A stretch of DNA of 64,000 nucleotides from Candidatus Eiseniibacteriota bacterium (GTDB lineage Bacteria; Eisenbacteria; RBG-16-71-46; JABDJR01). The position numbers were made by a program, and so were the translations under genes. How positions within the stretch are numbered: the stretch's first letter is position 1; every line of letters begins with the position of its first letter. The notes below the pieces were generated by a model, which worked only from the letters and a program-made list of their open reading frames with translations, searched no databases and was not told the DNA's origin. Of the stretch, positions 2,182 to 24,019 are shown piece after piece. The stretch covers positions 768,001 through 832,000 of the forward strand of contig CAVXKA010000001.1 in NCBI GenBank assembly GCA_963762255.1. Reading direction: 5' to 3'.

Positions 2182-2330
2182 GCCGTTAAGTCCGGTAGGC
2201 CACGGTGCAGATGGGGGCGGGACCCCCCTTGTTTCCCCAGGTGCGAGCCTGGATGTCAGAGAAGCGCGAGACCTCCATCACCTCCGTTCGAGTCAGGGAC
2301 AGCAGAGAAGAGCAGCCGGCCGACAGCGGC
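2182..2330 (+). ncRNA. Candidate structured non-coding RNA with a 6S-like rod architecture; family unassigned
   Basis: Ends pair (GCCGTT/AGCGGC, GTC/GAC, CCGGT/GCCGG). Inner stem GATGGGGG/CCTCCATC, apical hairpin CCAGGT-GCGA-GCCTGG with a GNRA loop, and a large asymmetric bubble. Directly followed by an intrinsic terminator; no credible ORF here. Confidence 0.4.
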
Positions 2331-2338
2331 CGGCGAGG

Positions 2339-2375
2339 GAAAGCCCGCCAGGGACCGGCGGGCTTTCTCTTTTCT
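2339..2375 (+). terminator. Rho-independent terminator, possibly bidirectional
   Basis: Stem GAAAGCCCGCC/GGCGGGCTTTC followed by TCTTTTCT. Confidence 0.75.
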
Positions 2376-2420
2376 ATCCGTTTCGCGCGGTTTCGGAGTC
2401 TGTGATCCGGACGGTGGCGC

Positions 2421-3266
2421 CTAGACCGCGCCGAGGCTTGTCTGAAACCAGGAGATCGTCCGCTCGATGGCGCGATGCAGTGCGGGAGGAGTTCCGGAGA
2501 ACGGGTGCGTTGCCCCGAAGGTGTGGTTCGCCCCCTCGATGAGGGCCTGACGCGTGAGGCCGGGATCCGACACGCGGGCCAGCTTGGCCGCCTCCTCAAC
2601 CGGCACCGATTCATCACGCGTGCCGTGCACGATCAGGTAAGGGATGCGCAAGCGGCGCGCAGCGAGCACCGGATCGTAGGCATCGGCGTGTGCGTCGAGA
2701 TCGTCGAGAAACCCCACGCCGAGCTTGAAGACCTGATGCGTGCGCGCGTTCTCGATCTCCACATAACCCTGCTCGCGCCAGAGCTGTCTGGCCGCATCGT
2801 CGAATCGCTGGAAACTGGCCACGGCGGCCCATGTCGCGATCGAGCGCACGCGCGGATCGCGGCCCGCCCGCACGATCGCCACCCCGCCGCCCCGACTATG
2901 GCCGAGAAGACCGAGTCGCCGGACGTCCACGCTCCCCACAGGGATCTCGCGATGACCCACCGCCTCCAGTACGCAGCCGAGATCGTCCAGCTCCTTGCCG
3001 ATCGTGTTGGCCTCGAAGCGAGCCGGCTCCGTGAAGTTCTGAAAGTCCTCGCCGATCCCCGACCCTGAGAAGTTGAAGGTCACGAGCGCGAGCTTGCTCT
3101 CGGCGAATCGCTTCCCGACTTCCGGCCAGAAGCCCCAATTCTTGAAGCCCTTGAATCCGTGGCAGGCGACGATGATCGGCGCGGCTCGAGGCTCCGGGGG
3201 GAGATAGATGTCACCGCAGAGATCGCCATGGGGACCGTCGAGAATCCGGAACGGAGTGGGTGTCAT
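2421..3266 (-). CDS. Alpha/beta-hydrolase (S9/dienelactone hydrolase-like)
   Basis: HGFKGFK oxyanion segment, GHSRGG nucleophile elbow, HGTRDESVP and GANHTF catalytic Asp/His. Confidence 0.9.
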   Translation of the reverse strand: MTPTPFRILDGPHGDLCGDIYLPPEPRAAPIIVACHGFKGFKNWGFWPEVGKRFAESKLALVTFNFSGSGIGEDFQNFTEPARFEANTIGKELDDLGCVLEAVGHREIPVGSVDVRRLGLLGHSRGGGVAIVRAGRDPRVRSIATWAAVASFQRFDDAARQLWREQGYVEIENARTHQVFKLGVGFLDDLDAHADAYDPVLAARRLRIPYLIVHGTRDESVPVEEAAKLARVSDPGLTRQALIEGANHTFGATHPFSGTPPALHRAIERTISWFQTSLGAV

Positions 3267-3478
3267 GAGCGAGGATCTTGAGGGAGAGACGGGGTGGCGA
3301 CAAGGCGTGCGGCCGGACAGAGAAACGCCGCCACTGCAAGCATGCTGGCCGCTATAGCAAGCCTGCCCGGCGGACGGGGATCCGACGGTGTGGCGGCTGC
3401 AGAAACTCTAGAGCGCGCCCGGCGCCCAGGTCAAGAGATGAGCTAAAAATTAAGGATTAGGCTGGGGGCGGGCTGCGG

Positions 3479-5179
3479 TCAGGCAGGCCAGCGGGCCGCG
3501 ATGGGCATCCGCCGCCCGGAGCCGAAAGCTACAGGGGAGATCTTGAGGCCCGGCGCGGCCTGCCGCCGCTTGTACTCCGCCCGGGCAACCATCTTGAGGA
3601 CTCGCCGAACCAGTTCCTCGGGGAGGCCCTCCGCCACCAGCGACTCCACGCCCAGATCCTCCTCCACCGCGCCTTCGAGAATCCGGTCGAGAAGATCGTA
3701 CGGGGGGAGGGTGTCCTGGTCGGTCTGATCCGGCTTCAGCTCGGCCGACGGGGGCTTGTCCATGGTGCTGCGGGGGATGATCTCGCGATCCCGATTCAGC
3801 CGTTGAGCCACCGCGTATACCGTGGTCTTGGGAAGATCGCTGATCACAGCCAGACCGCCGGCCATGTCGCCGTAGAGGGTGCAGTAGCCGACCGCGAGTT
3901 CGCTCTGGTTGCCGGTCGCCAGGAGCAGGTGGCCGAACTTGTTCGAGAGCGCCATGAGCAGAACGGCGCGCGCGCGGGCCTGCAGGTTCTCCTCCGTGAG
4001 GCCGGGCGTCGTGTCGTGGAACAGGCGGTCGAGGGACTGGAGCGACGCGGCGAAGACGGGCTCGATGGAGATGTTTTCGAAGTGGATGCCGAGGTTCTTC
4101 GCCACGGCTTCGGCGTCGCTCACGCTTCCCGGGCTGGAGTAGCGGCTGGGAAGCGCGATCCCCCAGACGTTCTCCGGGCCGAGCGCCTCGGCGGCGATCG
4201 CGGCGGTGAGAGCCGAATCGATGCCGCCCGAGAGCCCGAGCACGGCGGACTGGAACCCGCACTTGTGCGCGTAGTCTCGCAGACCGAGGGTGAGCGCTCG
4301 CCGGATCGACTCGATCTCGTCCAACTCCGGCCGCGCCGCCGCCGGCCAGGGGCTCACGTGCGGACGGCTGGGGTCGAGCGAGACGAGCGGCGCCACCGGG
4401 CGCGGCGATCCTTCGCCCACCTCGGCAAAGAGCATCTCCTCTTCGAAAGGCCGCCCGCAGGCGACCAATTCTCCGGAGGCGTCAAACACGTAGCCCTCGC
4501 CGTCGAAGATCAGCTCGTCGTTGCCCCCCACCTGATTCGTGTAGAGGAACGGCAATCCGTGGCGCGCGGCGTGGCTGGCGAACATCGAGCGGCGCAGCTC
4601 CATCTTCTTCGCGTGGAACGGCGACGAGGAGATGTTGAGGAGCACTTCCGCGCCCGCCTGGGCGAGTTCCTCGACGGGGTCCCGCAGATACAGACGCCTG
4701 GGCCAGAAGCCCGCCTCGTTCCAGGCGTCCTCGCAGATGTGGAGTCCCCAGCGGACGCCGCCGAACTCCACCGGGCGCGCGGGAGATTCGTCGGCTTCGA
4801 AGTAGCGTCCCTCGTCGAACACGTCGTAGGAGGGAAGGAGCTTCTTGCGCACCTCGGCCAGCACGCGCCCCTCCGCGCAGAGGAGGGCACCGTTGCTGAG
4901 CGGTTTGCCTTCGCGGGCCGGATTGGTGAGGGGCGTCCCGAAGATGAGTCCCGCCCGCCCGGTCGCCGCGGCCAGCGAGCCGGCGGTGCGCCCGGCGGCG
5001 GCGACGAACTCGGCCTGGCGAAGGAGATCCCTTGGCGGGTAGCCCGTGAGCGCGAGTTCGGGGAACACCACGAGGTCCGCCCCGCGCGCCACCGCCAGGT
5101 CGTACCAGGCACGGATGCGGGCGGCATTGCCCTCGAGATCGCCCACCACGGGATTGATCTGGCTCAGCGCCACGCGCAT
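3479..5179 (-). CDS. nadE: Glutamine-dependent NAD+ synthetase
   Basis: N-terminal nitrilase domain (FPELALTGYPP, ICEDAW) plus synthetase domain (GLSGGIDS, ENLQARAR, YCTLYGDM, KPPSAEL). Confidence 0.97.
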   Translation of the reverse strand: MRVALSQINPVVGDLEGNAARIRAWYDLAVARGADLVVFPELALTGYPPRDLLRQAEFVAAAGRTAGSLAAATGRAGLIFGTPLTNPAREGKPLSNGALLCAEGRVLAEVRKKLLPSYDVFDEGRYFEADESPARPVEFGGVRWGLHICEDAWNEAGFWPRRLYLRDPVEELAQAGAEVLLNISSSPFHAKKMELRRSMFASHAARHGLPFLYTNQVGGNDELIFDGEGYVFDASGELVACGRPFEEEMLFAEVGEGSPRPVAPLVSLDPSRPHVSPWPAAARPELDEIESIRRALTLGLRDYAHKCGFQSAVLGLSGGIDSALTAAIAAEALGPENVWGIALPSRYSSPGSVSDAEAVAKNLGIHFENISIEPVFAASLQSLDRLFHDTTPGLTEENLQARARAVLLMALSNKFGHLLLATGNQSELAVGYCTLYGDMAGGLAVISDLPKTTVYAVAQRLNRDREIIPRSTMDKPPSAELKPDQTDQDTLPPYDLLDRILEGAVEEDLGVESLVAEGLPEELVRRVLKMVARAEYKRRQAAPGLKISPVAFGSGRRMPIAARWPA

Positions 5180-5268
5180 GAACGCGGCCCTCCTTGAGCG
5201 GCACAGTCTAGCACCGACCGCGCGGTGTGCCGGTTGGCGCGACCGATGCGGGGTGCTAGTTTCGTCTC

Positions 5269-6306
5269 ATGCTTCGCAGGCCAACCGAGCCGACACGACC
5301 CGCCGCCCCCGAGCACGATCCGGCGGGAGGCGAGTCGGCGCCCCTAGAACACGAGGTCGTGCACCGGCGCATCCTTGCCGTGCTGAACCCGGTGGCGGGT
5401 CCGCGCGCCATCCCGCGCCCGACCAAGGAACTGCGCCGCTGGGCGGAGCGGCTCGGAGTGCACCTCGACATCGTGGAGACGCGCCCTGACCTGAACGGTG
5501 AGGCGGCGGTGGAGTCCGTGGGGAGCGAGTACGACTGCCTGCTCGCCGTGGGCGGAGATGGAACGGTGATGGAGGTCGCGGGCGCGGCGATGAAGCTGGG
5601 AATCCCGCTGGCCATCCTCCCGCGCGGAACCGCGAACGCGGTGGCGTGGCGCTTCGGCATCCCCTTCGACGTGGGCCAGGCACTCAAGGTGGCGGCTCAC
5701 GGGCGGTCGGTGTGCATCGACGTCGCCCGAACCCCGCATCGCGACTTTCTGATCATGGCGGGGTTGGGCTACGACGCCGCCGTGATCCGCGGCGCCACGC
5801 GAAGCCTGAAGCGCAGGCTCGGGTTCCTGGCGTACCTCTATTCTGCGCTGCGCAATCTCCGCCGGCGCCCCTATCACTTCCGTGTCTTTCTGGACGACCG
5901 CCCCCCTTTCCGTATCCGCGGAGCCACCGCGGTGATCGCTGATATCGGAACCCTTGCCGGCAACATCCGCCTGGTCAAAGAAGTCGACCCTCAGGACGGG
6001 GTGCTCGATCTCGTCGTGATCGCCCCCGAAAACTTCCGCGACTTCTTCCGCCTCGTATTCTGGGGAGTGTTGGGCCGGCTCGCTGAAGACCCCCGCGTGC
6101 GCACCTACCGCGCGTCGAAGATCAAGCTCGAGTGCCGACCGCTGGCGCCTCTGCAGGTGGACGGTGACGACATTCAAGGCCGTCACCGCGAGCTGGAGGC
6201 CGAGGTGCTCCCCAAGGCACTCATGCTGATGGTGCCCCACGAGGCCAAGCGCTTCCCGTGGATGCCCGAGGTCAAGTGGGAGCAGGGGAAGTTGAGGCGG
6301 CAGTAG
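5269..6306 (+). CDS. Diacylglycerol/lipid kinase family protein (YegS/DAGK-like)
   Basis: NPVAG, GGDGT, LPRGTAN, GLGYDA and QVDGD motifs. Confidence 0.92.
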   Translation: MLRRPTEPTRPAAPEHDPAGGESAPLEHEVVHRRILAVLNPVAGPRAIPRPTKELRRWAERLGVHLDIVETRPDLNGEAAVESVGSEYDCLLAVGGDGTVMEVAGAAMKLGIPLAILPRGTANAVAWRFGIPFDVGQALKVAAHGRSVCIDVARTPHRDFLIMAGLGYDAAVIRGATRSLKRRLGFLAYLYSALRNLRRRPYHFRVFLDDRPPFRIRGATAVIADIGTLAGNIRLVKEVDPQDGVLDLVVIAPENFRDFFRLVFWGVLGRLAEDPRVRTYRASKIKLECRPLAPLQVDGDDIQGRHRELEAEVLPKALMLMVPHEAKRFPWMPEVKWEQGKLRRQ

Positions 6307-11991: not shown

Positions 11992-12021
11992 TGCTCACCC
12001 GGGTGATCACCCGGGTGAGCA
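11992..12021. repeat. Perfect 30-bp palindrome made of two tandem 12-bp palindromes
   Basis: TGC-TCACCCGGGTGA-TCACCCGGGTGA-GCA equals its own reverse complement. Confidence 0.9.
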
Positions 12022-12254
12022 GGGGAAGTCCTTGTTTTGGTTGGACCTATGGGAGGCGGGGTGACGACTTTACCCGGGGAAAGTGGAGGGCGCCGCAGGC
12101 CTCCTGGTGTGTCGCGAGGGGAACAGGGTGGGGCGAGGGAGATCGGCCATGGTCCCTCATGCTCGTCCGGGCCTTCACGCGTTTCCATTCCGAGGCGATC
12201 GTCGCGCCTGCCGTCGCACGGCGTCCCCATCGCGTTACACGGACCCCGCTCGCA

Positions 12255-12399
12255 GGCTAACACCCGAGGCTGTCATCGCGAATCACCGGAGACGCCGGTG
12301 ACCCGAGAGGGGGGCGGGCGCGGCTATACTGGGCAGGAAGACAGCCCTGAGCGGAGCGATTCGCGGGTCAATGGGGCGTTAGCGCCTGGATAGTTAGGA
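12255..12399 (+). mobile_element. attC-like (or attI-like) integron recombination site
   Basis: GGCTAAC (12255) and GTTAGCG (12378) are complementary ends, with inner pairing TCGCGAATC/GATTCGCGG. A second core-like GTTAGGA lies at 12393, just before the VOC gene. Confidence 0.45.
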
Positions 12400-12407
12400 G
12401 GGCAACG

Positions 12408-12812
12408 ATGGCCAGGATTACCGGAGTCGGCGGCGTATTCTTCAAGAGCAAAGGCGACAGCGCTGCACTGGCAGCGTGGTATCGGAAGCACCTGGGCATG
12501 TCGCTGGAAGACTTTGGTGGCGCCATTCTCAGATGGCCGGACGACAAGGCCGAGGACCGAGGCCTTACTGTGTGGCATGTCGCGGAGAAAGACAGCCAGT
12601 GGTTCAGCCCAAGCAATTCTTCCTTCATGATCAACTACCGGGTCGACAACCTCGGCGAGCTGCTGGAGCAGCTGCGCGCGGGAGGTGTGGAAATCATCCA
12701 AGGACCCGAATCGCACGAGAACGGCAAGTTTGCGTGGATCATGGATCCAGACGACAATAAGGTCGAGCTCTGGGAGCCGAAGGTCTGGGACGACAAGAAC
12801 AAAGGTGTCTGA
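12408..12812 (+). CDS. VOC/glyoxalase family protein, probable gene cassette
   Basis: MARITGVGGVFFKS, WYRKHLG, FMINYRVDNL and GKFAWIMDPDDNKVELWEP; flanked by attC-like sites. Confidence 0.93.
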   Translation: MARITGVGGVFFKSKGDSAALAAWYRKHLGMSLEDFGGAILRWPDDKAEDRGLTVWHVAEKDSQWFSPSNSSFMINYRVDNLGELLEQLRAGGVEIIQGPESHENGKFAWIMDPDDNKVELWEPKVWDDKNKGV

Positions 12813-12819
12813 GAGCGCC

Positions 12820-12883
12820 GCCTAACAGCCGGTTGCAGCGGACGGTCCGCTGCGCGGCCCGTCGCTGGGCCGGAGCGTTACCT
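12820..12883 (+). mobile_element. attC site with a degenerate R' end
   Basis: GCCTAAC-AGCCGGTTGCAGCGGACGG-TCCGCTGCGCGG-CCCGTCGCTGGGCCGGAGC-GTTACCT is a 64-bp imperfect palindrome just after the VOC stop, with an RYYYAAC inverse core. Confidence 0.7.
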
Positions 12884-12949
12884 AGCCCGACTTCTGCGTC
12901 GCGACCTCGTGCGGGCTGCGCACCAGCAGTTGGTGAGCGAGAGGCGGCA

Positions 12950-12991
12950 CCATCGGTCATCTGCACGCTAGAGGAGTTGACGGAGGAGTAG
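12950..12991 (+). pseudogene. C-terminal remnant of a PIN-domain (VapC-like) protein
   Basis: Translates PSVICTLEELTEE*, matching the PxICTPEEL C-terminus of a PIN family usually followed by a DPIVEEVR partner; no recognisable upstream PIN sequence. Confidence 0.5.
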
Positions 12992-12993
12992 CC

Positions 12994-13179
12994 CTGCGCC
13001 GAGATCCTATCGTCGAAGAAGTCCGCGTCATCCGCGACGAACTTGCCAAGCGTCACGGCTACGACATCGGCGCCATCGTCCGGGCCCTGCAGAAGGCGTC
13101 CGTGGACGATGGCCGGGAGCTGGTCTCGCTTCCGCTGAGGCCCTTGGCGGAAGAGAACGACGACCGCAAAGCAGGCTAG
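12994..13179 (+). CDS. Small DPIVEEVR-type protein, a PIN-associated putative antitoxin; CTG start, possibly pseudogenised
   Basis: Not in the ORF track. GGAGGAG RBS then CTG, giving (M)RRDPIVEEVRVIRDELAKRHGYDIGAIVRALQ...RKAG*. Confidence 0.6.
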   Translation: MRRDPIVEEVRVIRDELAKRHGYDIGAIVRALQKASVDDGRELVSLPLRPLAEENDDRKAG

Positions 13180-13310
13180 CGATCGCAGCCGGCCATTCGC
13201 GGTGGGCCTTGGGCCAAGGAGGCGGCGGCCTGACTTCCCGTCGGTTAGTAGGGTGTTCGCCGGACGTTTCCCTCGCGCCGACGCGGTTGCGATGAAAGGG
13301 GGCAAGAGCC

Positions 13311-13640
13311 ATGCAGTTCGGGACTCTGCCATTCACGACGACAGACTGGAAGGCGATGCCGACAACTGAGCACCCCGGGGAATCGGGGGTAGCTCTCTGG
13401 CGGACCGTCGAAGCGGGAGACTTGCGTGTTCGCATGGTGGACTACAGCCCGGGCTATGTGGCGGACCACTGGTGCAGCCGCGGGCATGTTCTCCTCGTGC
13501 TCGAGGGGGAATTGACCACTGAGCTGCAGGACGGCCGGGTTGTCACGCTCACTCCCGGCATGAGCTACCAAGTGGCTCACGATACCGCGCCTCACAAGTC
13601 GCGGACCGAGGTCGGAGCAAAGCTGTTCATAGTTGACTGA
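13311..13640 (+). CDS. DHCW-motif cupin fold protein
   Basis: EHPGESGVALWRT, YSPGYVADHWCSRGH and KLFIVD. Confidence 0.88.
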   Translation: MQFGTLPFTTTDWKAMPTTEHPGESGVALWRTVEAGDLRVRMVDYSPGYVADHWCSRGHVLLVLEGELTTELQDGRVVTLTPGMSYQVAHDTAPHKSRTEVGAKLFIVD

Positions 13641-13677
13641 TGAGGGGCAATTCGCTCGCGTTCAGGGGGTCCGGCCA

Positions 13678-14049
13678 ATGCCAAAGGTTGTCAACATCGA
13701 CGACTGCTTCAAAAGATTCGCGGACACGTTCTCACCCAAGATCGTGGCCGACCTGAATGGCCAGCACGTCAAGCTCGCACGGCTGGAGGGCGACAAGGTC
13801 CCGTGGCACACGCACGCGAAGGAAGACGAACTGTTCTACGTTCTGGACGGCACGCTCGACATCCAGGACGAGGGCGACATGTTCACGGTGCGCGCGGGCG
13901 AGTTCTACATCGTCCTCCGCGGGAGGAAGCACCGTATTGTTCCCCGCGGACACGTGAAGCTGATGCTGTTCGAGCCGGCGGGCATCGCTCACACCGGCGA
14001 CGCGCGGGCCGAGATCACGCGCGATTCGTGCGATCGGCTGGAGTTGTGA
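13678..14049 (+). CDS. Cupin domain protein
   Basis: FSPKIVADLNGQHVKLA, WHTHAKEDELF, GEFYIV...H and LFEPAG...TGD. Confidence 0.88.
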   Translation: MPKVVNIDDCFKRFADTFSPKIVADLNGQHVKLARLEGDKVPWHTHAKEDELFYVLDGTLDIQDEGDMFTVRAGEFYIVLRGRKHRIVPRGHVKLMLFEPAGIAHTGDARAEITRDSCDRLEL

Positions 14050-14083
14050 GGCGGGGGGCCTGGTGCCGCCCGGGAGATCAACG

Positions 14084-14407
14084 ATGCCCAAGACAAAGCT
14101 ACCGCCTGTGACCCCCGGTGAACTCCTGCTCGAGGAGTTCCTGAAGCCTATGGGGATCTCACGGTACCGACTGGCCAAGGAGATCGGGGTGCCTGCCCAG
14201 CGAATCGGTGAGATTGTTGCGGGCAGGCGGTCGATCACCGCAGACACCGACCTGCGCTTGTGCCGGTTCTTCGGCTTGTCGAACGGATACTGGCTTCGCG
14301 CTCAGGCCGCCTACGACACAGAAGTCGCAGCAGACGCGCTCTCGGATACGCTGAGGAAGATCAAGCCCTGGGCTGGTCCTGGTCGGCGGGCGGGTCACGC
14401 GGCTTGA
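14084..14407 (+). CDS. higA: HigA-family addiction module antidote (XRE HTH); no higB upstream
   Basis: PVTPGELLLEEFLKPMGISRYRLAKEIGVP...ITADTDLRLCRFFGLS..YWLRAQAAYD. Confidence 0.92.
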   Translation: MPKTKLPPVTPGELLLEEFLKPMGISRYRLAKEIGVPAQRIGEIVAGRRSITADTDLRLCRFFGLSNGYWLRAQAAYDTEVAADALSDTLRKIKPWAGPGRRAGHAA

Positions 14408-14712
14408 CTGTGTAGACTTCGGGGAGTTCGGGGCTGCTCTATGTCCTCAAGAAGTGGTGCGGTCCAGAAGCGACATCGGGACCGGGGGCATGGGCCGGGG
14501 CCGCCCCACAACCAGCTCTGAAGCCTTGTCCTCCCAATCGCTCCTGACTAGATTTCCGAGTCACGGACTTGATGGAGACCCTCTTGGCGTTTCGCCCAAG
14601 GCGATGCTCTTGACGAAAGGCCTGAACCGGACTTTAACTCGGAAGCCATCGACTTCCGAGTAGCTTCTGAGTTGGTTGGCGAGCTTCGACCATCGGGTGA
14701 TCGGAGGTTCCC

Positions 14713-14946
14713 GTGCAGAAGTCGCAGATGCTGGCGAGCGTCGCGATCATACTGGGCGCACTGGCGCTGCTGCTGAGCTGGGGCGCGACGCTTGCCCTCC
14801 TCGATATCGTGCAGGGAAGAGAGCCCGACCTGTCACTCGAGTGGACCGTCGTCTGGATCGCCTTGCCGGTGATAACTCTGGCACAGGTCGTCTCCATCGC
14901 GGCGCTCGTGACGATGCAGGCATGCCGCACGAGGTCAACCAAATGA
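14713..14946 (+). CDS. Small two-TM membrane protein
   Basis: GGAGG RBS, GTG start, two hydrophobic segments; stop overlaps the next ATG (ATGA). Confidence 0.55.
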   Translation: MQKSQMLASVAIILGALALLLSWGATLALLDIVQGREPDLSLEWTVVWIALPVITLAQVVSIAALVTMQACRTRSTK

Positions 14947-15449
14947 GTGTGACGATCTCCCTTTCACAGGTAGTGGCGGGCCTTGAGATGGTCTCCACCG
15001 AATGCACCAGCTATCTCAATCGCCTGACCGGAGAGGTCATCTCCTGTTCGGATGATGAACTTGATGCGGCCGAGGACGAGTCGATGGAGGATGACGCGGA
15101 GCGTCCCGACTGGGAGCAGGGGCTGATCGAGCAAGCACGGGCGGTCATCGCTTCGGACGATTGGGTCGCCCTTCCCGATAGCTTCGAGATCCACGAACAC
15201 CGGATCATGGAGGATTTCGCCGAGTCCCAGTCCGGCAGCCTCCGGGACGAGCTGTTGCGAGCGCTTCGGGGAGCCGGTACCTTCCGCCGGTTCAAGAACG
15301 AGCTTGAGCGCCTGGGAATCCGTGACGAGTGGTTTCGTTATCGTCGGCAGGCCTTCGGGGGAATCGCACGGGATTGGCTGGAAGCCAACGAACTTCCGTT
15401 CGATCCGACGGACGATCCGGACGCGGATGGGGCGCCGGAGGGTAAGTAA
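14943..15449 (+). CDS. UPF0158 family protein
   Basis: SYLNRLTGEV, LPDSFEIHEHRIMEDFA, ALRGAGTFRRFK, WFRYR and WLEAN. Confidence 0.88.
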   Translation: MSVTISLSQVVAGLEMVSTECTSYLNRLTGEVISCSDDELDAAEDESMEDDAERPDWEQGLIEQARAVIASDDWVALPDSFEIHEHRIMEDFAESQSGSLRDELLRALRGAGTFRRFKNELERLGIRDEWFRYRRQAFGGIARDWLEANELPFDPTDDPDADGAPEGK

Positions 15450-15488
15450 GGCGATCCGTGCTGTCCCCTCACCCTGGGAGGTTTCACC

Positions 15489-16317
15489 ATGAATCGTGTG
15501 AGCGTGTCGATCGGTGCCATCCTGCTCTCACTTGCGACCCTCCCGATGCGGGCCGGCGCGCAGGAGCCCCCCAAGTCCCATCGTGACCTGGACTGGCAGG
15601 CGCCGCGCCGATGGGTGCACGTGGACAACGTCGACGCGCAGAAGGCATCGCTGTTCGTGGACGCCCGCCTGAGCTGGCTGGCAAAGTTGCGCACCGACGA
15701 CGGGCTCCTCGCCGACGGCAGGCCGCTCTTCTGGCATGCGCGATCTTCGAAGGCCGGCGAGACGTTCTTCTCGTTCTACCCCTTCCGCACATGGACGGAC
15801 CTCGACGCGCGCGGGCAAATGGCCACCGAGACGGTCAAGGTGGTCGGGGAAGACGCCTTGAAGGCATACGACTCGGGTGACGAAGCGCTGGTCTCCCCGC
15901 ATTACTCGCAGATCTGGTCGCGCGTGGCGGAGTACGACATCGCCGTGCCGGCCACCGAGTCCTTGACCGAACTCAGCGCGACGGCGGGCAGGCTCGAAGT
16001 TCATTCGGTAGACATAACCCGGTGGGAACGTCTTCGAGCAGTCGTGGAAGCAGATCACGGACGCGCTTGTCGCCGCCGAGTACCCCCTGGCCTGCCGCGC
16101 CTTCAGGAGCACCTACGGGAAGGGCGAGTACATGATCTGGTGGTTGGCGCCGGACTCCGCCGCGTACATGAGCGCCCCATCGATCCAGGATGTTCTCGAC
16201 GAGCAACTCGGCCCGCAGAAGAGCGCGGAACTCCGCGGGGCCCTCGATGCGGTCTTCCCCGTCGAGGAGTTCTATGAGGTCGAGCGCCGCGCGGACTTGT
16301 CCAACTTGGGCAGGTAA
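15489..16317 (+). pseudogene. Exported hypothetical protein split by a single-base frameshift near 16024
   Basis: Signal peptide and GGAGG RBS. Removing one G from TGGGAAC joins frames into ...RWNVFEQSWKQITDAL...EVERRADLSNLGR* (stop 16317). Confidence 0.65.
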
Positions 16318-16350
16318 CGCGACCCGCCGCGAGGCAGAAAGGAGATAACG

Positions 16351-16764
16351 ATGATGGAGACCGTCGAGGAAGGGATCCTGAGGCGCGTTAGGGAATTCGA
16401 AGCGGCCTACAACGCGGGAGATGCCGACGCTCTGGCGGCCATCTACGCCGTCGACGGTACGCACACCTATGCGCTTGGCTTCACGCACCGCGGACGGACG
16501 GAGATCGGGAAAGGGCTCAAGGAGCAGTTCGCCGGGCCGTTCAAGGGCACGAAGATGGCCATCACACCGCTCCGTATTCGCGCGCTTTCATCGAGCATTG
16601 GGGTCGAAGAGGCGTCCTTCACCCTCTCGGGTCTCAAGGGCGCGGATGGCGCGGTACTGCCGCCATTCGGCGGATTCTGTCTGGTCGTCTACCAGAAGGA
16701 CGGCGACACCTGGTACGTCGCCGCAGCTCAGTGCATGGTGCCGCCGCCGATGCCGCAGCAGTAG
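16351..16764 (+). CDS. SnoaL/NTF2-like protein (DUF4440, SgcJ/EcaC family)
   Basis: FEAAYNAGDADALAAIY, GRTEI and YQKDGDTWYV; AAGGAG RBS. Confidence 0.85.
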   Translation: MMETVEEGILRRVREFEAAYNAGDADALAAIYAVDGTHTYALGFTHRGRTEIGKGLKEQFAGPFKGTKMAITPLRIRALSSSIGVEEASFTLSGLKGADGAVLPPFGGFCLVVYQKDGDTWYVAAAQCMVPPPMPQQ

Positions 16765-16824
16765 CGATTCCAGGCAGGCCGGATTTGCCGACGGGTGGAT
16801 GTGGTCTTGATTCCCACCTCCGGC

Positions 16825-17235
16825 TCACTTCGCCGGATAGGGCACGAGATGGAGTTTGAGCCACTTCGCCAAGGCCGCCTCGGAAAGGTCGCCCGCCGCG
16901 AGCTTGAGCATCACCGCCACGACTTCGGTCTCCGGGGCCTCAAGGTCGTAATCATTCAGCCCTAGGAAAACGAGCATCGTCAGAAACGCGACTCTCTTGT
17001 TGCCGTCGCGATAGGGGTGATTCCGGGCCAGGCCGAAACCGTGGGTTGCCGCGAGGGTGGCTATGGACGCGTTGCGTCCGTAGACCCAGCGGTGCCGCGG
17101 CCGGGCGAGCGCGGATTCCAGAGCGTTCTCATCCCGGACCCCGAGAAGTCCGCCGTGCGTGCGGATGAGGTCCAAGCGGATAGCGTCCACGATCACTCGA
17201 TCCACCCACACCGGCTCGCGCCGCCCCTTGGGCAT
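16825..17235 (-). CDS. doc: Death-on-curing (Fic/Doc) toxin
   Basis: HGGLLGVRDENALESALARP and the Fic/Doc motif NHPYRDGNKR. Confidence 0.93.
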   Translation of the reverse strand: MPKGRREPVWVDRVIVDAIRLDLIRTHGGLLGVRDENALESALARPRHRWVYGRNASIATLAATHGFGLARNHPYRDGNKRVAFLTMLVFLGLNDYDLEAPETEVVAVMLKLAAGDLSEAALAKWLKLHLVPYPAK

Positions 17236-17238
17236 GAT

Positions 17239-17466
17239 CTACTTCGCCAACTCCCGCAAGGCGTTCCGATACTTGCGTGCCCCTCGGGCCGCGATGGCCA
17301 GCGCCTTCTCGACCGTGGGGTCGTAGGGAGTCAGAAGGATGCCGCGGTCCGTCTCGATGGCGATGACGCGATCCCCCACCGCGAGGTGGAGTCGGTCCGC
17401 CATTTCCTTGGGCAGGGTGGCGCCTATGGACCCACCGACCTGACGCAGGACGACGTCTCGAGTCAT
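17239..17466 (-). CDS. AbrB/MazE-family antitoxin paired with Doc
   Basis: LRQVGGSIGATLPKE...GDRV...GILLTPYDP...YRNALRELAK; 3 bp upstream of doc. Confidence 0.92.
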   Translation of the reverse strand: MTRDVVLRQVGGSIGATLPKEMADRLHLAVGDRVIAIETDRGILLTPYDPTVEKALAIAARGARKYRNALRELAK

Positions 17467-17503
17467 GCTTCCTCCGGGTTTGCCAGCACAGCCGCCGAAG
17501 GTG

Positions 17504-17542: not shown

Positions 17543-17694
17543 CTACAGCCGCGTGATCCGCACCTCGTCCTGGCCGTCGCGCACGTGCACGAGGTCGCCT
17601 CGGGGGGCGTGACGCAGTGCCTTGATGAGTCCCGTGGTGGAGAACCCCTCGCGGTCATGCGCGGCCAGGATCCGCGCCACCGACTTCACGGGCA
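17543..17694 (-). repeat. Diverged 152-bp copy of the 3' end of the 21638-22156 gene (displaced gene end, att-like direct repeat)
   Basis: Aligns without gaps to 21638-21789 with about 13 mismatches by manual count; encodes PVKSVARILAAHDREGFSTTGLIKALRHAPRGDLVHVRDGQDEVRITRL*. Confidence 0.92.
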
Positions 17695-17744: not shown

Positions 17745-20700
17745 TCACTTTCCCGACTCAGGCGGGTTCGCCCCTCCCGCAAGCCTCACGCCTGCAGGTA
17801 CGGGCACTGGTATTGGGGGCGTGGAGTCGCCAGTGAGCAGCCTCCAGTTAGCGGCGGCACAGCGATGCAACCAATCGAGCATCCATGTGTTCAGTCGCTG
17901 GTGATTCGGGTTCGGTGAGTCGTTGGTCTCCCACCGCGCCAAGACTCGATCACCAATCTCACGACGGATAGTCATGCGCTTCCTGTGGTGCTCGACCAAG
18001 ACGCGGAGGCCGACAAAGAACAGTACCTGGTGGGCCGATAGGTGTCCGTCCCCGAGATCACCGGCAAGCTCACGCATGATGCCGTCGATCTGGGACTGTG
18101 CTGGCCAAAAACAAGAAGTCTGTGTCGCATCCAATCCGAGGAGAGCGCATGACCCGCACAGCTCCAAACGGCAGATCGCGCCTTCATCGTTATCGCAGCG
18201 AGAAAGGAAACGAATTAGCCCAGATGCCCTATGAACCAAAGCTTCAGAAGGGAAGTACTCGTGGACGAAGGCGGGCGTCCACGCCCACAGAGAGAATAGG
18301 GCAATTGCGATGTCGCGCGGCGGAAGCCTGATGTAGTTTCTCTCCAGCCACTCTCGGGAGGCAACCCTGTCCAGAAACTGACGGAGATCAGCCTCCGGCG
18401 TCGGTTCGATACTACGAAGAACAGTCGAGACGAGGCCCAATGAAAGCGACTGAGATCTCCATGCGGCGTCCGCGTCCTCCTGAATGAGTAAACATGACAG
18501 CTCCGATAGTATTTCCTGACAGTCACAGCTCCTGAGGAGCCCAGCGATGCGCGGAAACAACCTCGCGTCGCGCAGCACAGGCTCCAAGCGAGGGTGGTGG
18601 ACACCTTGAGCTCGAAATTCAACGGCGATTGTGTGGCGCACCAGATCTGCAAGTTCAGGAAACACGTCGACCGCGTACTGGAGGAATCCGTTGAGGCTAC
18701 CAGATTCAGTGTCCGACGCCGTTCGGACGACTTTGGCGCAGCTCCTATCGGCGGTCAATCCGTGACGGATTGCCTCAAATGTCTCGGGGAGCGCGATCGC
18801 TGCGTATTCTGCAAAATTTTGCAGATCACCGAGTCTCGAGTCTACCGCGGTCTGCACCAACTTCCCTTGGTTCGCCTCCACCAAGAACGCTGCGCGGATC
18901 GCCTCGAAGGCCGTCGGCATTTGCACTTCGGCGTACTCCAAGAAGTTGCGGAGAGCATGCAGGGGCGAGGCCACCGCCGTCTCTACCAATCGTCTCTGAT
19001 TGTCCGCCACAGAGAAGGCTACTCGAATCGCATCGAACGCCTCCGGCATCTTGACTTCCGCGTACTCCAAGAAGTTCCGGAGGGTATGCAGAGGCGAGGC
19101 CACCGTTGTCTCTACCAATCGCTTCTGATTGTCCGTCACGGAGAAGGCCGCTCGAATCGCACCGAACGCCTCCGGCATATTGGCTTCCACGTACTCCACG
19201 AAGTTCCGGAGAAAATGCAGCGGGGTCTCCAAGATGGCTTGGACGAGTCGTTCTTGGTTCTCCGCCAGTAAGAACGCAGCACTGATCGCATCGAACGCTT
19301 CCGGAATCTTGACTTCCACGTACTCCATGAAGTTCCGGAGAAAATGCAGCGGTGTTTCCAGGACAGCGCGGGCCAGCGCTTTCCGATTGGCCTCGGCGGA
19401 TAACGCGTCGGTGATTGAAGCATACGCTGCGGGTAGTCTAGCTTCAGCGTATTCCAAGAAATTGGGCAGGTATCCCAGGTGCGAATCCAACGCAGCCTGC
19501 CCGAGCTTTGGCAGGCGGGCCTCATCCGAGAGCGCGGTTATGATCACTTCATACGTTTTCGGCAAGTGGACTTCTGTGTATTCCAGGAGGTCCCGCATCT
19601 CTCCAAGTGGGATGTCGAACACCGCCTGAGCCAAGTTGGCGGACCCACTCAAACGCCGGTCCAACGCCGTTTGCGAGAGCACCGATAACTCCAGTAACTG
19701 TTGACACTCGTCGTGCAGATGAGACACCCCGAATGTGATGAGGCGACCGAATGCGTCCTCGGCGTTGAATGCCGCCAAGAGGATGCGCTTGGCCGCGTCA
19801 GCGTCACCCTGCACGCGGCGCACGCGACTGGCCATGAGACAGGCGAAGCGCGGATTGCGCCGGCCGACTTCACATTTGTGGTCAAGGGAGGACGTGGTCG
19901 GTGTGGCCGCCGCCCACAAGAGTCGTCCCATGCCAGGATGATGGAAGCAGTAGCGGTGGAATTGACCATCACGGCCGTGGGCGGAATGCCAGACAAGTCC
20001 ATGTTGCACGCTCATCTCGAACTGGTCGGGATAAGGCAGTGCCTCCGTGGGAACGTGCAACTCCAAGTCGGCGCACGCCGCCAGGGCAATCAGGTTCTCG
20101 CGCTCTCGAGCGTCAAGCGGATACCCAGGTCGGTCGAGGTACTCCTCGCGAATGTAGTCGGCAGCGTCTGCTTCTGCCAGTCCATACTCGCCGCGCAGGA
20201 TTCTGGAAAGCTTGCGACGCGCGGCGAGGCTAAACGCCACCAGATCCCCGCCAAAGACTCTGAGCCACGTGTCCAGCACAGAGTCAGGGAGCAGTGGTCG
20301 CGACGGTACGCCCCCCCCCCGCCGCGCGATCAGTCGCTGAAGCACTCCGACCAAGTCGGCTGACTCTACCTCGAGCGTCAAAGCTGTGCGGCGCAAATCT
20401 GCGAGTGGTGATTGTCGACCGCGCCGATCCGGTCCCTTCTCTGTCAATCGTCCTTGAAACAGGAGGCGGACGGGGCAGCCGTGGTCTCGCCACGCGAGGT
20501 AGATGCTTGCGGCAAGTCGCTCGGCGACGTGGATATTGTCTATGATTACGAGCGTCTCCCTCCCGCTCAATTGAGCGACTGCGGCCAGAGCAGCCTGGCA
20601 GGACACAGCCGTCTCCGGGTCATCGTCGGCCTCAGCGAGGTCGCAATAGAATGCTCGACTGGGACCGAGCTCCGAGTCGAAGGCGAGTAGGAACGCAAGG

Positions 20701-21374
20701 GTGGTCTTACCCGATGCCCCCTTACCAAGAACGCAGGCGAATCGGCCTGTCTTCAGCGCTGTCTCCACCGAACTTGCAAGCGAGGGTCGGTGAACCCGGT
20801 GTTCCCTGTATTCCCGCTGCGATGGGCTGAAGGCATTTGGGTCACTATCATCGCCGAAACGATGCGATGCGTCTAAGACACGGATGAACGGACTGATGGC
20901 CTGGGCCGCAGGCGAACGTCTCCTGAGAAGCCAATTGTGAAGATCAGTGGCAAGGCATGTCGCTAACTGATCGGGCGTGCTGAAATCGGTGACTGTGAGA
21001 TTGCTACGGAGCTCTTCCTTCAATGCAGCGAGCCGCTGCGCCTTGTTCGGATCGAACTCTCGTTGCTCGGGGGTGATAGCCGCATCCAGCTTGATGTAGA
21101 TATAGCAGGGCAGCCCCATCTTCCTCGCGCGCCGGTACTCCTGCTCAGTGATGCCGGAACTGTAACTGCCGCCGAAAATGCCTACGTAGAGCTGGCTGCA
21201 ATCGACCTCATCTAGAGATGTCTGGGATGTGTCACCTCCGCGGCTGCCAAAGTACTCCATACCGTGGAACTTGGTCTCATGAAATCGCTGCAGGACCTTC
21301 TCGACCGCTAGACGCTCCGCCTGGAGCTCCCGCCAGGTCGAGCTGACGAAGACACGAATGTCAACCTGAGCCAT
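17745..21374 (-). CDS. DUF4062 + STAND-type P-loop NTPase + 43-aa helical repeat protein (NLR-like, putative defence)
   Basis: IRVFVSST...ERLAV...GMEYF...SLDEV...YVGIFG..Y...ITEQEY (DUF4062); Walker A GKGASGKTT; Walker B LVIIDN; tandem repeats. Start placed at MAQVD; codon usage visibly less GC-skewed than the flanks. Confidence 0.85.
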   Translation of the reverse strand: MAQVDIRVFVSSTWRELQAERLAVEKVLQRFHETKFHGMEYFGSRGGDTSQTSLDEVDCSQLYVGIFGGSYSSGITEQEYRRARKMGLPCYIYIKLDAAITPEQREFDPNKAQRLAALKEELRSNLTVTDFSTPDQLATCLATDLHNWLLRRRSPAAQAISPFIRVLDASHRFGDDSDPNAFSPSQREYREHRVHRPSLASSVETALKTGRFACVLGKGASGKTTLAFLLAFDSELGPSRAFYCDLAEADDDPETAVSCQAALAAVAQLSGRETLVIIDNIHVAERLAASIYLAWRDHGCPVRLLFQGRLTEKGPDRRGRQSPLADLRRTALTLEVESADLVGVLQRLIARRGGGVPSRPLLPDSVLDTWLRVFGGDLVAFSLAARRKLSRILRGEYGLAEADAADYIREEYLDRPGYPLDARERENLIALAACADLELHVPTEALPYPDQFEMSVQHGLVWHSAHGRDGQFHRYCFHHPGMGRLLWAAATPTTSSLDHKCEVGRRNPRFACLMASRVRRVQGDADAAKRILLAAFNAEDAFGRLITFGVSHLHDECQQLLELSVLSQTALDRRLSGSANLAQAVFDIPLGEMRDLLEYTEVHLPKTYEVIITALSDEARLPKLGQAALDSHLGYLPNFLEYAEARLPAAYASITDALSAEANRKALARAVLETPLHFLRNFMEYVEVKIPEAFDAISAAFLLAENQERLVQAILETPLHFLRNFVEYVEANMPEAFGAIRAAFSVTDNQKRLVETTVASPLHTLRNFLEYAEVKMPEAFDAIRVAFSVADNQRRLVETAVASPLHALRNFLEYAEVQMPTAFEAIRAAFLVEANQGKLVQTAVDSRLGDLQNFAEYAAIALPETFEAIRHGLTADRSCAKVVRTASDTESGSLNGFLQYAVDVFPELADLVRHTIAVEFRAQGVHHPRLEPVLRDARLFPRIAGLLRSCDCQEILSELSCLLIQEDADAAWRSQSLSLGLVSTVLRSIEPTPEADLRQFLDRVASREWLERNYIRLPPRDIAIALFSLWAWTPAFVHEYFPSEALVHRASGLIRFLSRCDNDEGAICRLELCGSCALLGLDATQTSCFWPAQSQIDGIMRELAGDLGDGHLSAHQVLFFVGLRVLVEHHRKRMTIRREIGDRVLARWETNDSPNPNHQRLNTWMLDWLHRCAAANWRLLTGDSTPPIPVPVPAGVRLAGGANPPESGK
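18630..19610 (-). repeat. Eight intragenic 129-bp (43-aa) tandem repeats, the last one degenerate
   Basis: Unit PLHxLRNFxEYxEVxMPEAFxAIRAAFxxxxNQxRLVxTAVxS; unit starts at 19610 through 18707 are exactly 7 x 129 bp apart. Confidence 0.92.
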
Positions 21375-21637
21375 GCACTCCACCGATCTCCTCACCGCGC
21401 ACCGCATGGTGATAGTAATAACTGAAGATCGCTTCGCGCGCACGCCTGCCGCGACAGCGCATCCGCATGACGGTCAGAGCGTCAGCAAATTGTACCGTAT
21501 CACACATTTTTGCGCAGCCGCGTGATGAAGCGCCACCACGCGGAGCGCCAGCGAAGTGCCACCGCGGCAGGAGAATTCGGGACCGGCGGCAGCTCCCGGG
21601 GTGATCTCGCCCGTGAGCCGATCCGCGAGCCTCGGCG

Positions 21638-22156
21638 CTACAACCTCGTGATGCGCACCTCGTCCTGGCCGTCGCGCACGTGCACGAGGTCGCCTCGGGG
21701 GGCGTGACGCAGTGCCTTGATCACTTCCATGGTGGAGAACCCCTGGCCGTCATGGGCGGCCAGGATCCGCGCCACCGACTTGAGCGGCACGCGGCAGTGC
21801 ACCTGCTCCTCCCCCTCCTTCACGTCGACGGTGATGCACTTGCCCTCCTTGCGCACCAACACCGACTCGTCGCCCTCCACGACCTCGGCGATGACGAAGT
21901 CGGGGCAGCGCGAGAGTTCCTCGGCGAGGCGCACCCCGATCTCCTGATACTGGCCGAGATCCTCGCACTTCACGTAGCGTGCCTCGTCGGGCGCGAGCGA
22001 CAGCGCGGCCTGGGCCACGATCAGCGGGACCGGGATCACGATGTGCGTCCCGTCAGGCCCACCCTCGCGCACATCTACGAGCAGAACGCCGGTGGCGCCC
22101 AGGAAGAGCGCGGAGGCGAGGAACGGCGTGGCTATGATGGCTCCGACCTTCAGCAT
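21638..22156 (-). CDS. Membrane-anchored or exported hypothetical protein, distantly paralogous to the upstream gene
   Basis: N-terminal hydrophobic segment; internal duplication (IVIPVPL / VHCRVPL); V.VxDGxDxVxI motifs shared with the 22192-22749 protein. Confidence 0.75.
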   Translation of the reverse strand: MLKVGAIIATPFLASALFLGATGVLLVDVREGGPDGTHIVIPVPLIVAQAALSLAPDEARYVKCEDLGQYQEIGVRLAEELSRCPDFVIAEVVEGDESVLVRKEGKCITVDVKEGEEQVHCRVPLKSVARILAAHDGQGFSTMEVIKALRHAPRGDLVHVRDGQDEVRITRL

Positions 22157-22191: not shown

Positions 22192-22749
22192 TCAGTCGAT
22201 CCAGATGCGGACTGTGTCGTCGCCGTCTTCGACGCGAACGATCTCGCCCTTTTTCATATCCTTCATCTTGCCGACGGCGGCTGCGACGTCCAGCTCGTTG
22301 CCCTCGCCGCTCAGGAGCGCGTCCACCACGGCGACCGGCAGCTCGATGCGCACCTTCTCGCCCTCGTCGCCGTCCACGTTCACGAACACGCTCTCGCCCC
22401 TGCGGGAGACGCTCACCGTCTCGTCGCCGTCCTTGACGGTCACGAACTCGGCGTCGCCCGCGCGGCGGACCTCGGCCCACATCTCGCGCATGTCCTCGAG
22501 GGTGAAGTCCTCGTCCTCGACGCGGAAGTGCGAGTGGCCGCCCGACTTCTCTTGGGCCATCTTGAGCGCGACGTCGGCCAGGGAGATGGGCAGGTTCACG
22601 TTCACGGTGGCCCCGTCACCGTCGTGCTCGCGCACTTCGATGTGGATCCAGGGACCGTTGGAGGCCTCGTCCTTCTGCCCCGCGAACGCGAGGGCGGGAA
22701 GGGCCAGGGCCAGGGTCAGGAATGCGATGCAGAGGATTCTCTTGTTCAT
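22192..22749 (-). CDS. Exported hypothetical protein with an internal duplication
   Basis: Signal peptide MNKRILCIAFLTLALALPALAFA; VNVNLPISLA / VRIELPVAVV repeats. Confidence 0.8.
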   Translation of the reverse strand: MNKRILCIAFLTLALALPALAFAGQKDEASNGPWIHIEVREHDGDGATVNVNLPISLADVALKMAQEKSGGHSHFRVEDEDFTLEDMREMWAEVRRAGDAEFVTVKDGDETVSVSRRGESVFVNVDGDEGEKVRIELPVAVVDALLSGEGNELDVAAAVGKMKDMKKGEIVRVEDGDDTVRIWID

Positions 22750-23479: not shown

Positions 23480-24019
23480 ATGACACGCGAGCGCAATTTC
23501 GGCGAGAAGCGATTGGTCGTGATGCCGGGCGACATCACCGAGCAGCGCGTGGACGCGATCGTCAACGCCGCCAACGAGTGGCTCGTCCACGGGGGCGGGG
23601 TCGCAGGCGCGATCTCCCGCGCTGCCGGGCCGCGGCTCCAGGAAGAGTCGAGCCCGAAGGCGCCCATTCGCGCCGGCGAGGCGGTGGCTACCTCTGGCTG
23701 GCGGCTGCCTGCGAAGCACGTGATCCACACCGTGGGGCCGCGAGGCGGGGACGAGGACGGCGACGTCGTGCTTTTGAGCGCGGTCGAGAGTTCGTTGCGC
23801 GTGGCGGAGGAGAACGGCGTGCGCTCGATCGCGTTCCCTGCGATCTCGGCAGGCATCTTCGGATACCCGCTCGAATCGGTGGCGCGGATTCTGGTGGGAG
23901 CGGCCGCGGCGTGGCTTCGCGATCCCGCGCACGCGATCGAGGAGATCCGATTCGTGCTCTTCGATGCGCGCACGTTGCGCGCCTTCGAGGCGGCGCTGGA
24001 CGCGGAAACCGCGGACTGA
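23480..24019 (+). CDS. Macrodomain ADP-ribose hydrolase (YmdB-like)
   Basis: GDIT, DAIVNAAN, GGGVAGAI, VIHTVGP and FPAISAGIFGYP. Confidence 0.95.
   Translation: MTRERNFGEKRLVVMPGDITEQRVDAIVNAANEWLVHGGGVAGAISRAAGPRLQEESSPKAPIRAGEAVATSGWRLPAKHVIHTVGPRGGDEDGDVVLLSAVESSLRVAEENGVRSIAFPAISAGIFGYPLESVARILVGAAAAWLRDPAHAIEEIRFVLFDARTLRAFEAALDAETAD

Follow-up and report, generated by a model that had tools for sequence, protein, structure and literature searches.

DUF4062 domains have been described in a series of 2026 preprints as effectors of bacterial antiphage proteins. Osinski et al. (10.64898/2026.05.01.722283) present DUF4062 as a TIR-like NADase with a catalytic Glu that acts in the Swarozyc system, where it is triggered by the phage portal protein. 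The domain was renamed NIR by Le Mouellic et al. (2026, 10.64898/2026.09.04.749371), whose preprint reports the depletion of NAD+ by NIR-Avs2 upon terminase sensing and describes the systems Vulcan (NIR-HEAT) and Vesta. As given in these two sources, NAD+ is hydrolyzed to ADP-ribose (ADPR) and nicotinamide by the NIR domains of PsAvs2, Vulcan, Vesta, Swarozyc and TEP1, and the conserved Glu is needed for the reaction. The 2026 preprints place the effector across Avs2 and “other NLR-like proteins with various repeats” (NLR, NOD-like receptor), and a further defence system, Evangelion, is described by Ibarra-Chavez et al. (10.64898/2026.06.25.731849). In the catalogue of Lee et al. (2026, 10.64898/2026.01.04.697583), prokaryotic STAND proteins are divided into 589 clades, 198 of them defence-associated, with 684 sensor clusters that are mostly of helical-repeat types; effector exchange is used there as a criterion for defence. 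The present analysis concerns a single gene in a 64,000-nt stretch of DNA (hereafter, the window) from Candidatus Eiseniibacteriota bacterium (GCA_963762255.1, contig CAVXKA010000001.1, positions 768,001–832,000). Its product carries an N-terminal NIR domain, a central STAND NTPase module and a C-terminal repeat array. It is probably a pattern-recognition protein of the NLR/Avs kind, made of one chain and belonging to a STAND family that appears not to have been characterised, and a NIR mechanism is proposed for it.

An uninterrupted frame on the minus strand spans 17745–21443 in the list of open reading frames (ORFs), and initiation at the ATG at 21374 yields a protein of 1209 residues. Support for this start comes from NIR homologues, which align over their residues 1–150 with residues 1–150 of the protein. 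A first-pass annotation of the sequence had proposed a tripartite protein of ca. 1210 residues with an N-terminal DUF4062, a Glu retained in the motif ITEQEY (residues 75–80), intact Walker A and Walker B motifs, and an array of 43-residue repeats. Each of these features was recovered (Table 1), and the ORF is intact. The PADLOC comparison suggested in that annotation was also run. The protein matched no described system in PADLOC-DB 2.0.0: there was no match to Avs/AVAST types 1–5, and the two weak matches obtained (E 0.025–0.051) were to other models and fell in the P-loop. No PADLOC model was matched by four homologues taken from genome loci, and a search of the window protein against NCBIfam gave nothing significant.

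The N-terminal domain was matched by Pfam PF13271 (DUF4062) over residues 7–83 with 48.9 bits (cutoff 24.7, E 7.6e-13). Two AlphaFold2 models were computed with family alignments, one of residues 1–600 (predicted local distance difference test score, pLDDT, 89.8) and one of residues 560–1209 (pLDDT 92.5). In the first of these, strands and helices alternate in the NIR region (strand 6–12, helix 18–30, strand 34–38, helix 47–58, strand 62–67, helix 75–85, strand 90–95, helix 109–125, strand 128–131, helix 134–153). In an alignment of 55 NIR domains, E79 and T76 were present in all 55, Y80 in 52 and E77 in 49. E79 is the putative catalytic residue, and the E79-Y80 pair fits the “catalytic E-Y region” that is named in the Evangelion preprint (10.64898/2026.06.25.731849). 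The domain is 55–65% identical to DUF4062 domains that are joined to TPR, NB-ARC or other downstream regions, but identity drops to 27–29% against the NIR domains of P0007, P0009 and P0010, which are the nearest relatives by NTPase; the best full-protein alignments of these three with the window protein show about 39–47% identity. The low identity to these relatives and the high identity to domains from other architectures together indicate that the effector was recruited at least twice onto this chassis; judged by sequence, the DUF4062 of the window protein is an acquisition independent of that in its closest relatives.

The remainder of the model of residues 1–600 comprises, after the five-stranded beta/alpha domain (residues 1–155), a P-loop domain, a helical domain and a winged helix with a beta-hairpin. 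The domain order characteristic of STAND proteins (nucleotide-binding, helical, winged-helix) was thus found. Besides the invariant motif residues given in Table 1, R309 is nearly invariant in the 36-member family alignment. H479, which follows the winged-helix hairpin, is a candidate equivalent of the ADP-sensing histidine of the NLR “MHD” motif. In the P-loop region, the Pfam family that matched best was nSTAND_NTPase5 (PF25199; residues 208–312), but its 15.7 bits lie below the cutoff of 34. Weak matches to the same family were given by 22 of the 36 members, the best with an E-value of 7.6e-6 and 26.2 bits, and none of the 36 reached the cutoff; one genomic homologue (L009:9404-12274) did pass it, at 39.5 bits. 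A literature search for “nSTAND5” found nothing related.

C-terminal to the NTPase module lies the repeat array, whose seven clear units are spaced by exactly 43 residues, the central units being 53–74% identical to one another. At the DNA level, Tandem Repeats Finder reported a period of 129 nt at 18884–19406 (3.6–4.1 copies, 76–81% matches, score 509). Helices alone make up the model of residues 560–1209, with about three of them to every 43 residues. At the fold level, the features of an armadillo-like alpha-solenoid were found, i.e. tandem three-helix units of ca. 42 residues stacking into a superhelix, and a fold search with the solenoid model returned generic solenoid matches only. According to the model, then, the sensor is a three-helix alpha-solenoid of the armadillo/PUF/HEAT kind, unfamiliar in sequence but not in fold. 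No Arm or HEAT family of Pfam was matched by the window protein at E ≤ 1, a Protein Atlas search with the sensor and cap (residues 581–1190) gave no usable match, and comparison of a family profile with the sequences in the PDB gave weak matches to designed helical/armadillo proteins (E 0.0005–0.005; 4d4e, E 0.0017). The first-pass annotation had not recognised the sensor. That assessment stands for sequence, as no Pfam or PADLOC model covers the array, but not for the fold; the models and the fold searches showed both the STAND NTPase module and the all-helical solenoid. The helical cap that follows the array, formed by the C-terminal 265 residues, aligns up to residue ca. 1180–1190 in distant homologues (including P0035, P0051, P0057, P0067 and P0074), and F1000, W1009, A1023, G1122, W1168, L1169 and W1177 are near-invariant in the 36-member alignment.

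An exhaustive HMMER comparison with residues 1–1190 as query gave 2594 cluster representatives at E ≤ 0.001, of which 332 remained at E ≤ 1e-30. Of 167 proteins compared, 112 have the NTPase segment, 59 of these together with the repeat and C-terminal parts, and 51 match in the DUF4062 part only. Full-length matches at 25–30% identity span residues ca. 160 to ca. 1180, so the conserved unit is the core of NTPase, repeats and cap; this family is present in several phyla. A census of N-termini was made with the 88 members that have more than 90 residues ahead of the core. The same domain of ca. 165 residues, of no recognised type, occurs in 65 of them; DUF4062 was found in four (including the window protein), a SIR2 cluster in three, long helical/hydrophobic N-termini in three and another common domain in two, the remainder being singletons. 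Pfam confirmed SIR2_2 in P0085 and P0135, Pkinase in P0053 and PNP_UDP_1 in P0079. In the Protein Atlas, the dominant N-terminal domain (P0051, residues 1–165) reached a score of 0.91 against clusters of the restriction-endonuclease domain Mrr_cat; this match is taken as a lead only, because Pfam detected no Mrr family in the 36 members at E ≤ 0.1. A sequence-profile comparison of the same domain with the PDB gave no match. The swapping of effectors on a conserved core is a hallmark of defence NLRs and supports the NLR/Avs-like assignment.

Variation within the array was examined with a unit hidden Markov model built from the seven units of the window protein. Between 1 and 16 units were found in 61 proteins, with a period of 43 residues in most of the examples inspected and of 41 in one. 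In the window protein, P0003, P0005 and P0027, entropy is at or near its maximum at unit positions 11 and 12; in P0006 and P0007, with their almost identical arrays, position 12 alone clearly varies. From helical periodicity, positions 11, 15, 18 and 22 would share one face of the second helix. In P0006, an 835-residue metagenome protein, four of the seven detected units are identical letter for letter and a fifth differs only at position 12, which reflects either a very recent expansion or an assembly artefact. The array of the window protein is acidic (30 K+R, 48 D+E, isoelectric point (pI) 4.9), as are the arrays of four of the six homologues checked; that of one homologue is basic (pI 9.4). 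An acidic array favours a protein ligand over a nucleic-acid ligand, and RNA or DNA binding by the repeats, which had been raised by matches to PUF and organellar helical-repeat proteins, was judged unlikely on the same ground.

A more far-reaching interpretation, which we regard as rather unlikely, is that the family constitutes an undescribed, cross-phylum group of bacterial NLRs with a “programmable” sensor. The 43-residue array (1 to at least 16 units) would then read its ligand repeat by repeat, through variation at the di-residue 11-12 and on the helix-2 face formed by positions 11/15/18/22, and the gene would travel as a minimal single-gene cassette that has no integrase and is targeted to the 3′ terminus of a conserved gene of the host. 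The modular reading is drawn by analogy with the TALE and PUF codes and with the hypervariable repeats of fungal NLRs.

The architecture, the conserved motifs, the folds, the modular exchange of effectors and the horizontal insertion of the gene (see below) were established in this analysis. For the ligand, oligomerisation, NADase activity and defence phenotype of the window protein, we infer a four-step scheme by analogy with Avs proteins and NIR systems. At rest, the nucleotide-bound NTPase module (K223, D279, H479) would hold the protein monomeric and the NIR domain inactive. The acidic solenoid and helical cap would bind an invader-derived ligand, most likely a phage protein, and this binding would lift autoinhibition and permit nucleotide exchange and oligomerisation. 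The clustered NIR domains would then hydrolyze NAD+, leading to abortive infection. The same sensor and switch could be coupled to a different output if the NIR domain made a nucleotide signal, which is the case for some TIR domains, or had a different nucleotide or a nucleoside as its substrate; the original annotation of the DUF4062 in Avs2 was CMP hydrolase, and the fold groups with nucleoside deoxyribosyltransferases. We consider this improbable, as TEP1 and each of the four bacterial NIR systems that the preprints assayed are reported to convert NAD+ to ADPR and nicotinamide (10.64898/2026.09.04.749371; 10.64898/2026.05.01.722283), and no second, signal-reading gene is present within the 4.1-kb insertion.

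The gene arrived horizontally as a small foreign insertion. The first-pass annotation had placed it in an inserted segment, and this was borne out by its low GC content, low GC content at third codon positions (GC3) and a bracketing 152-nt direct repeat. Windows covering 17–22 kb have a GC content of 0.58–0.62 (vs. 0.64–0.69 further out), and the GC3 of the gene is 0.67 (vs. 0.80–0.92 in the flanking core genes). The two repeat copies are 91% identical with a start-to-start spacing of 4095 nt. Copy B belongs to the conserved gene orf_21638, whose 3′ end it forms; copy A is an orphan, and its translation is identical at 43 of 50 positions to residues 123–172 of the orf_21638 product. Compared with a genome of the same genus, identities are 117/154 for copy A and 122/153 for copy B, figures that do not decide which copy is native. 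Between the copies lie ca. 4.1 kb that hold the gene, its 263 nt of upstream sequence and nothing else. In the same-genus genome, homology ends exactly at the stop codon of orf_21638. There, the last ca. 60 nt of the contig (L006, G001:C35) include a long poly-C run after the orf_21638 homologue, probably an artefact of assembly at the variable junction. No integrase or transposase was found among the Pfam matches between 8 and 28 kb of the window, and the window as a whole contains no tRNA gene. The 152-nt bracket looks like the scar of a site-specific or homology-guided insertion of an integrase-free, single-gene cassette.

In relatives, the gap between the macro-YqeY-orf22192-orf21638 block and the orf11207-M19 dipeptidase pair measures 2.2–3.5 kb, vs. 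9.6 kb in the window, and none of the island genes of the window was found in the syntenic gap of family-level relatives. The gene itself is present in none of 40 relatives, one of which has a match to DUF4062 only, and the family profile was found in one of the 206 genomes of the phylum, namely the window's own.

Homologue neighbourhoods were then compared. Seven genomic loci, found with a closer 11-member alignment, were recovered from Verrucomicrobiaceae, Pseudomonadota, Sphingomonadales, Rhodobacter, an alphaproteobacterium, Solirubrobacterales and Pseudomonas. One (L008), a 4.1-kb contig without flanks, was left out, and one plasmid locus was added, so that seven loci were scanned. The setting is clearly a defence island in three of them, suggestive in two and uninformative in the other two. 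The homologue in the Pseudomonas locus (L013) sits amid a type II methylase and restriction enzyme, PDC-S06 and SoFic; the Rhizobium plasmid homologue is near AbiH-family and DUF4238 genes; and in L012 a TIR protein adjoins the homologue, together with a control-protein helix-turn-helix (HTH) gene. A PycC-like cyclase is near the homologue in L011, a kinase-FGE-sulfatase protein in L007, a Mu-type transposase in L010 and a WD40 protein in the Sphingomonadales locus (L009). Two genes of L013 (5496–7313 and 7319–8080) match the N- and C-terminal parts of a single PDC-S06 model (E 2e-194 and 2.6e-119), and the PDC-S06 gene appears to be split or frameshifted there. The WD40 protein of L009 (6579–9227) has 882 residues and, with an 1147-residue protein that has no Pfam family (2194–5637), may represent further NLR-like genes. 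The plasmid collection contained one homologue of the core and three matches to DUF4062 alone; no relative was found in the phage collection.

Several observations weigh against an immune role, or at least against an active protein. Several homologues lie near defence genes; none of the 14 neighbours of the window copy had a PADLOC match, and the remaining genes of the window are of housekeeping type. At three of the seven scanned loci (L009, L010 and, save for a generic kinase match, L007), no clear defence gene is present. In the NIR domain, the loop reads GGSYSS rather than the GGRYGS of relatives, with R at position 70 in 52 of 55 sequences and G at position 72 in 54 of 55; these substitutions could weaken or alter catalysis. 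The Walker B motif ends in DN and not in DD or DE, so hydrolysis may be slow or absent. Of the immune-protein reading in the first-pass annotation, the NLR/Avs-like part is well supported by the models, the fold matches, effector swapping in the family and the defence surroundings of several homologues; the neighbours of this copy lend it no such support.

The missing PADLOC neighbours would suit a STAND protein outside immunity, e.g. a switch for cell death or regulation, linked to stress or development, that responds to an endogenous ligand. The catalogue of Lee et al. (2026, 10.64898/2026.01.04.697583) describes defence and non-defence STAND clades as interspersed, and signalling genes (LuxI/R, GGDEF, adenylate cyclase) are found at several homologue loci. 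To this explanation we assign a low probability, since the swapped N-termini are of toxic-effector types (NIR, SIR2, PNP), Pfam detected no DNA-binding output domain in the window protein, the gene has a foreign composition and a family found so sparsely in the phylum, and some homologues reside inside restriction-modification/Abi islands. A third possibility is a decaying or inactive passenger, in which the ORF is intact but the effector is disabled by S70 and S72 and the insertion is presently functionless, which would also agree with the absence of promoter-like sites in a scan upstream of the gene; it is unlikely, given that the 1209-codon frame is unbroken, the NTPase motifs and E79/Y80 are intact, all domains gave confident models, two other NIR domains likewise have no R at position 70 (the substitution of G72 being confined to the window's sequence among the 55), and the scan covered sigma-70 consensus sites only (the accompanying terminator scan was uninformative).

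Table 1. Positions in the window of the NLR-like gene, its domains and motifs, and the elements that adjoin it.
Feature	Position	Strand	Remarks
Whole NLR-like gene	17745..21374	-	1209 residues plus stop; identical full-length protein (P0002) in protein collection
N-terminal DUF4062/NIR domain, residues 1–155	20910..21374	-	TIR-like five-strand beta/alpha fold; Pfam PF13271
Atypical NIR loop, residues 70–74	21153-21167	-	SYSSG vs. RYGSG in relatives; NIR alignment, loop before catalytic helix
E79-Y80, putative catalytic “E-Y” of NIR	21135..21140	-	Conservation and preprint motif
STAND-type NTPase module, residues 160–540	19755..20897	-	Nucleotide-binding, helical and winged-helix domains
Walker A GKGASGKTT, residues 217–225	20700..20726	-	G217, A220, G222 and K223 invariant (36/36)
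Walker B LVIIDN, residues 275–280, then conserved H282	20535..20552	-	D279 and H282 invariant; N280 at least 90%
H479, before the helix that follows the winged-helix hairpin	19938..19940	-	Invariant (36/36); hairpin strands 461–466 and 472–477, helix 480–490
Array of 43-residue three-helix repeats, residues 581–924	18603..19634	-	Seven clear units and one degenerate unit
Conserved C-terminal helical domain, residues 925–1190, then low-confidence tail	17805..18602	-	Homologue alignment, model
Direct repeat copy A	17543..17694	-	Orphan duplicate of the orf_21638 3′ end; 50 nt downstream of the NLR stop
Direct repeat copy B	21638..21789	-	Final 50 codons and stop of conserved gene orf_21638
Upstream intergenic region, 263 nt	21375..21637	-	Inside the insertion
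Phd/MazE-type antitoxin (17239-17466) and Doc/Fic toxin (16825-17235)	16825..17466	-	Directly downstream; MazE_antitoxin E 3.4e-10, Fic E 3.5e-13

Adjoining toxin-antitoxin modules had been noted in the first-pass annotation; one such module (Phd/MazE-Doc/Fic) was confirmed, and the plural was not. The rest of the 9.6-kb variable region (12010–17500) encodes a glyoxalase, two cupins, an HTH_3 protein, a SnoaL-like protein and the Phd/Doc pair, along with three further ORFs that have no significant Pfam match, one of which gave a weak, sub-cutoff match to UPF0158; nothing in this region was matched by PADLOC. The insertion target is one of two adjacent paralogues on the minus strand (21638–22156 and 22192–22749; 172 and 185 residues), which are 28–32% identical by tblastn against relatives, belong to no Pfam family and are kept beside YqeY in family-level relatives. 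A macro-domain protein, of an ADP-ribose-binding or -hydrolysing fold, is encoded on the plus strand at 23480–24019, 2 kb from the NLR-like gene. This proximity is probably coincidental, because the macro-domain gene also occurs in two relatives (G004 and G007) that have no NLR-like gene. The segment 28586–33322 hints at the host lineage, as it encodes a TonB-dependent receptor of the CarboxypepD_reg type and a protein whose sorting domain (Por_Secre_tail) is that of type IX secretion.

If the protein is active, the NLR-like defences that act by NAD+ depletion, whose first descriptions date from 2026, would gain a new type of sensor and a new clade of NTPase; the overall view of NLR immunity in bacteria would stay as it is. 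The presence of NIR, SIR2, PNP, kinase and probably nuclease-like heads on one chassis is a clean natural experiment in effector exchange. Repeats that vary in copy number and show localised hypervariability would suit the study of how NLR sensors change specificity, and the precisely bounded 4.1-kb insertion shows a route by which a single defence gene may enter a housekeeping neighbourhood.

In comparison with described systems, the kind of protein is already known, given the 2026 NIR preprints. The first-pass proposal of an undescribed Avs-like type thus fails for the concept of a NIR effector on an NLR-like protein and may hold for the NTPase-sensor family, which appears to be uncharacterised in the libraries searched; among Avs proteins the sequence comparison covered types 1–5 and not the experimentally characterised Avs7–21, and the clades of Lee et al. 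were compared by description. The broad-sense layout of Avs proteins (N-terminal effector, STAND NTPase, C-terminal sensor) is present in the window protein, and its family fits the helical-repeat sensors and effector exchange described in the catalogue of Lee et al. (2026, 10.64898/2026.01.04.697583). Fungal NLRs, as described by Dyrka et al. (2014, PMC4986451), likewise have near-identical tandem sensor repeats that vary in copy number and at a few positions; those repeats, however, are of the WD40, ANK or TPR type and are joined to NACHT or NB-ARC, whereas the window protein is bacterial and has a 43-residue unit and an NTPase of another clade. With Swarozyc and Evangelion (10.64898/2026.05.01.722283; 10.64898/2026.06.25.731849), the protein shares a DUF4062 core with an E-Y motif and a single-gene, horizontally mobile organisation, but the proteins of those systems, as described, are short and have a non-NTPase auxiliary domain, with neither a STAND module nor a repeat array. 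Vulcan (10.64898/2026.09.04.749371) likewise couples NIR to an alpha-solenoid sensor within one polypeptide; its description includes no NTPase switch, unlike the window protein, in which a STAND module of ca. 380 residues separates effector and repeats. PsAvs2 (10.64898/2026.09.04.749371) differs in its sensor, a terminase-binding, TPR-like domain according to the preprint, whereas that of the window protein is an array of 43-residue, three-helix units with a helical cap, and the window protein has no AVAST/Avs match in PADLOC, its NTPase weakly resembling nSTAND5. Both are encoded by a single gene and combine an N-terminal NIR domain that has the conserved Glu with a central STAND NTPase and a C-terminal helical-repeat sensor, and by analogy with PsAvs2, the expected output of the window protein would be NAD+ depletion and abortive infection.

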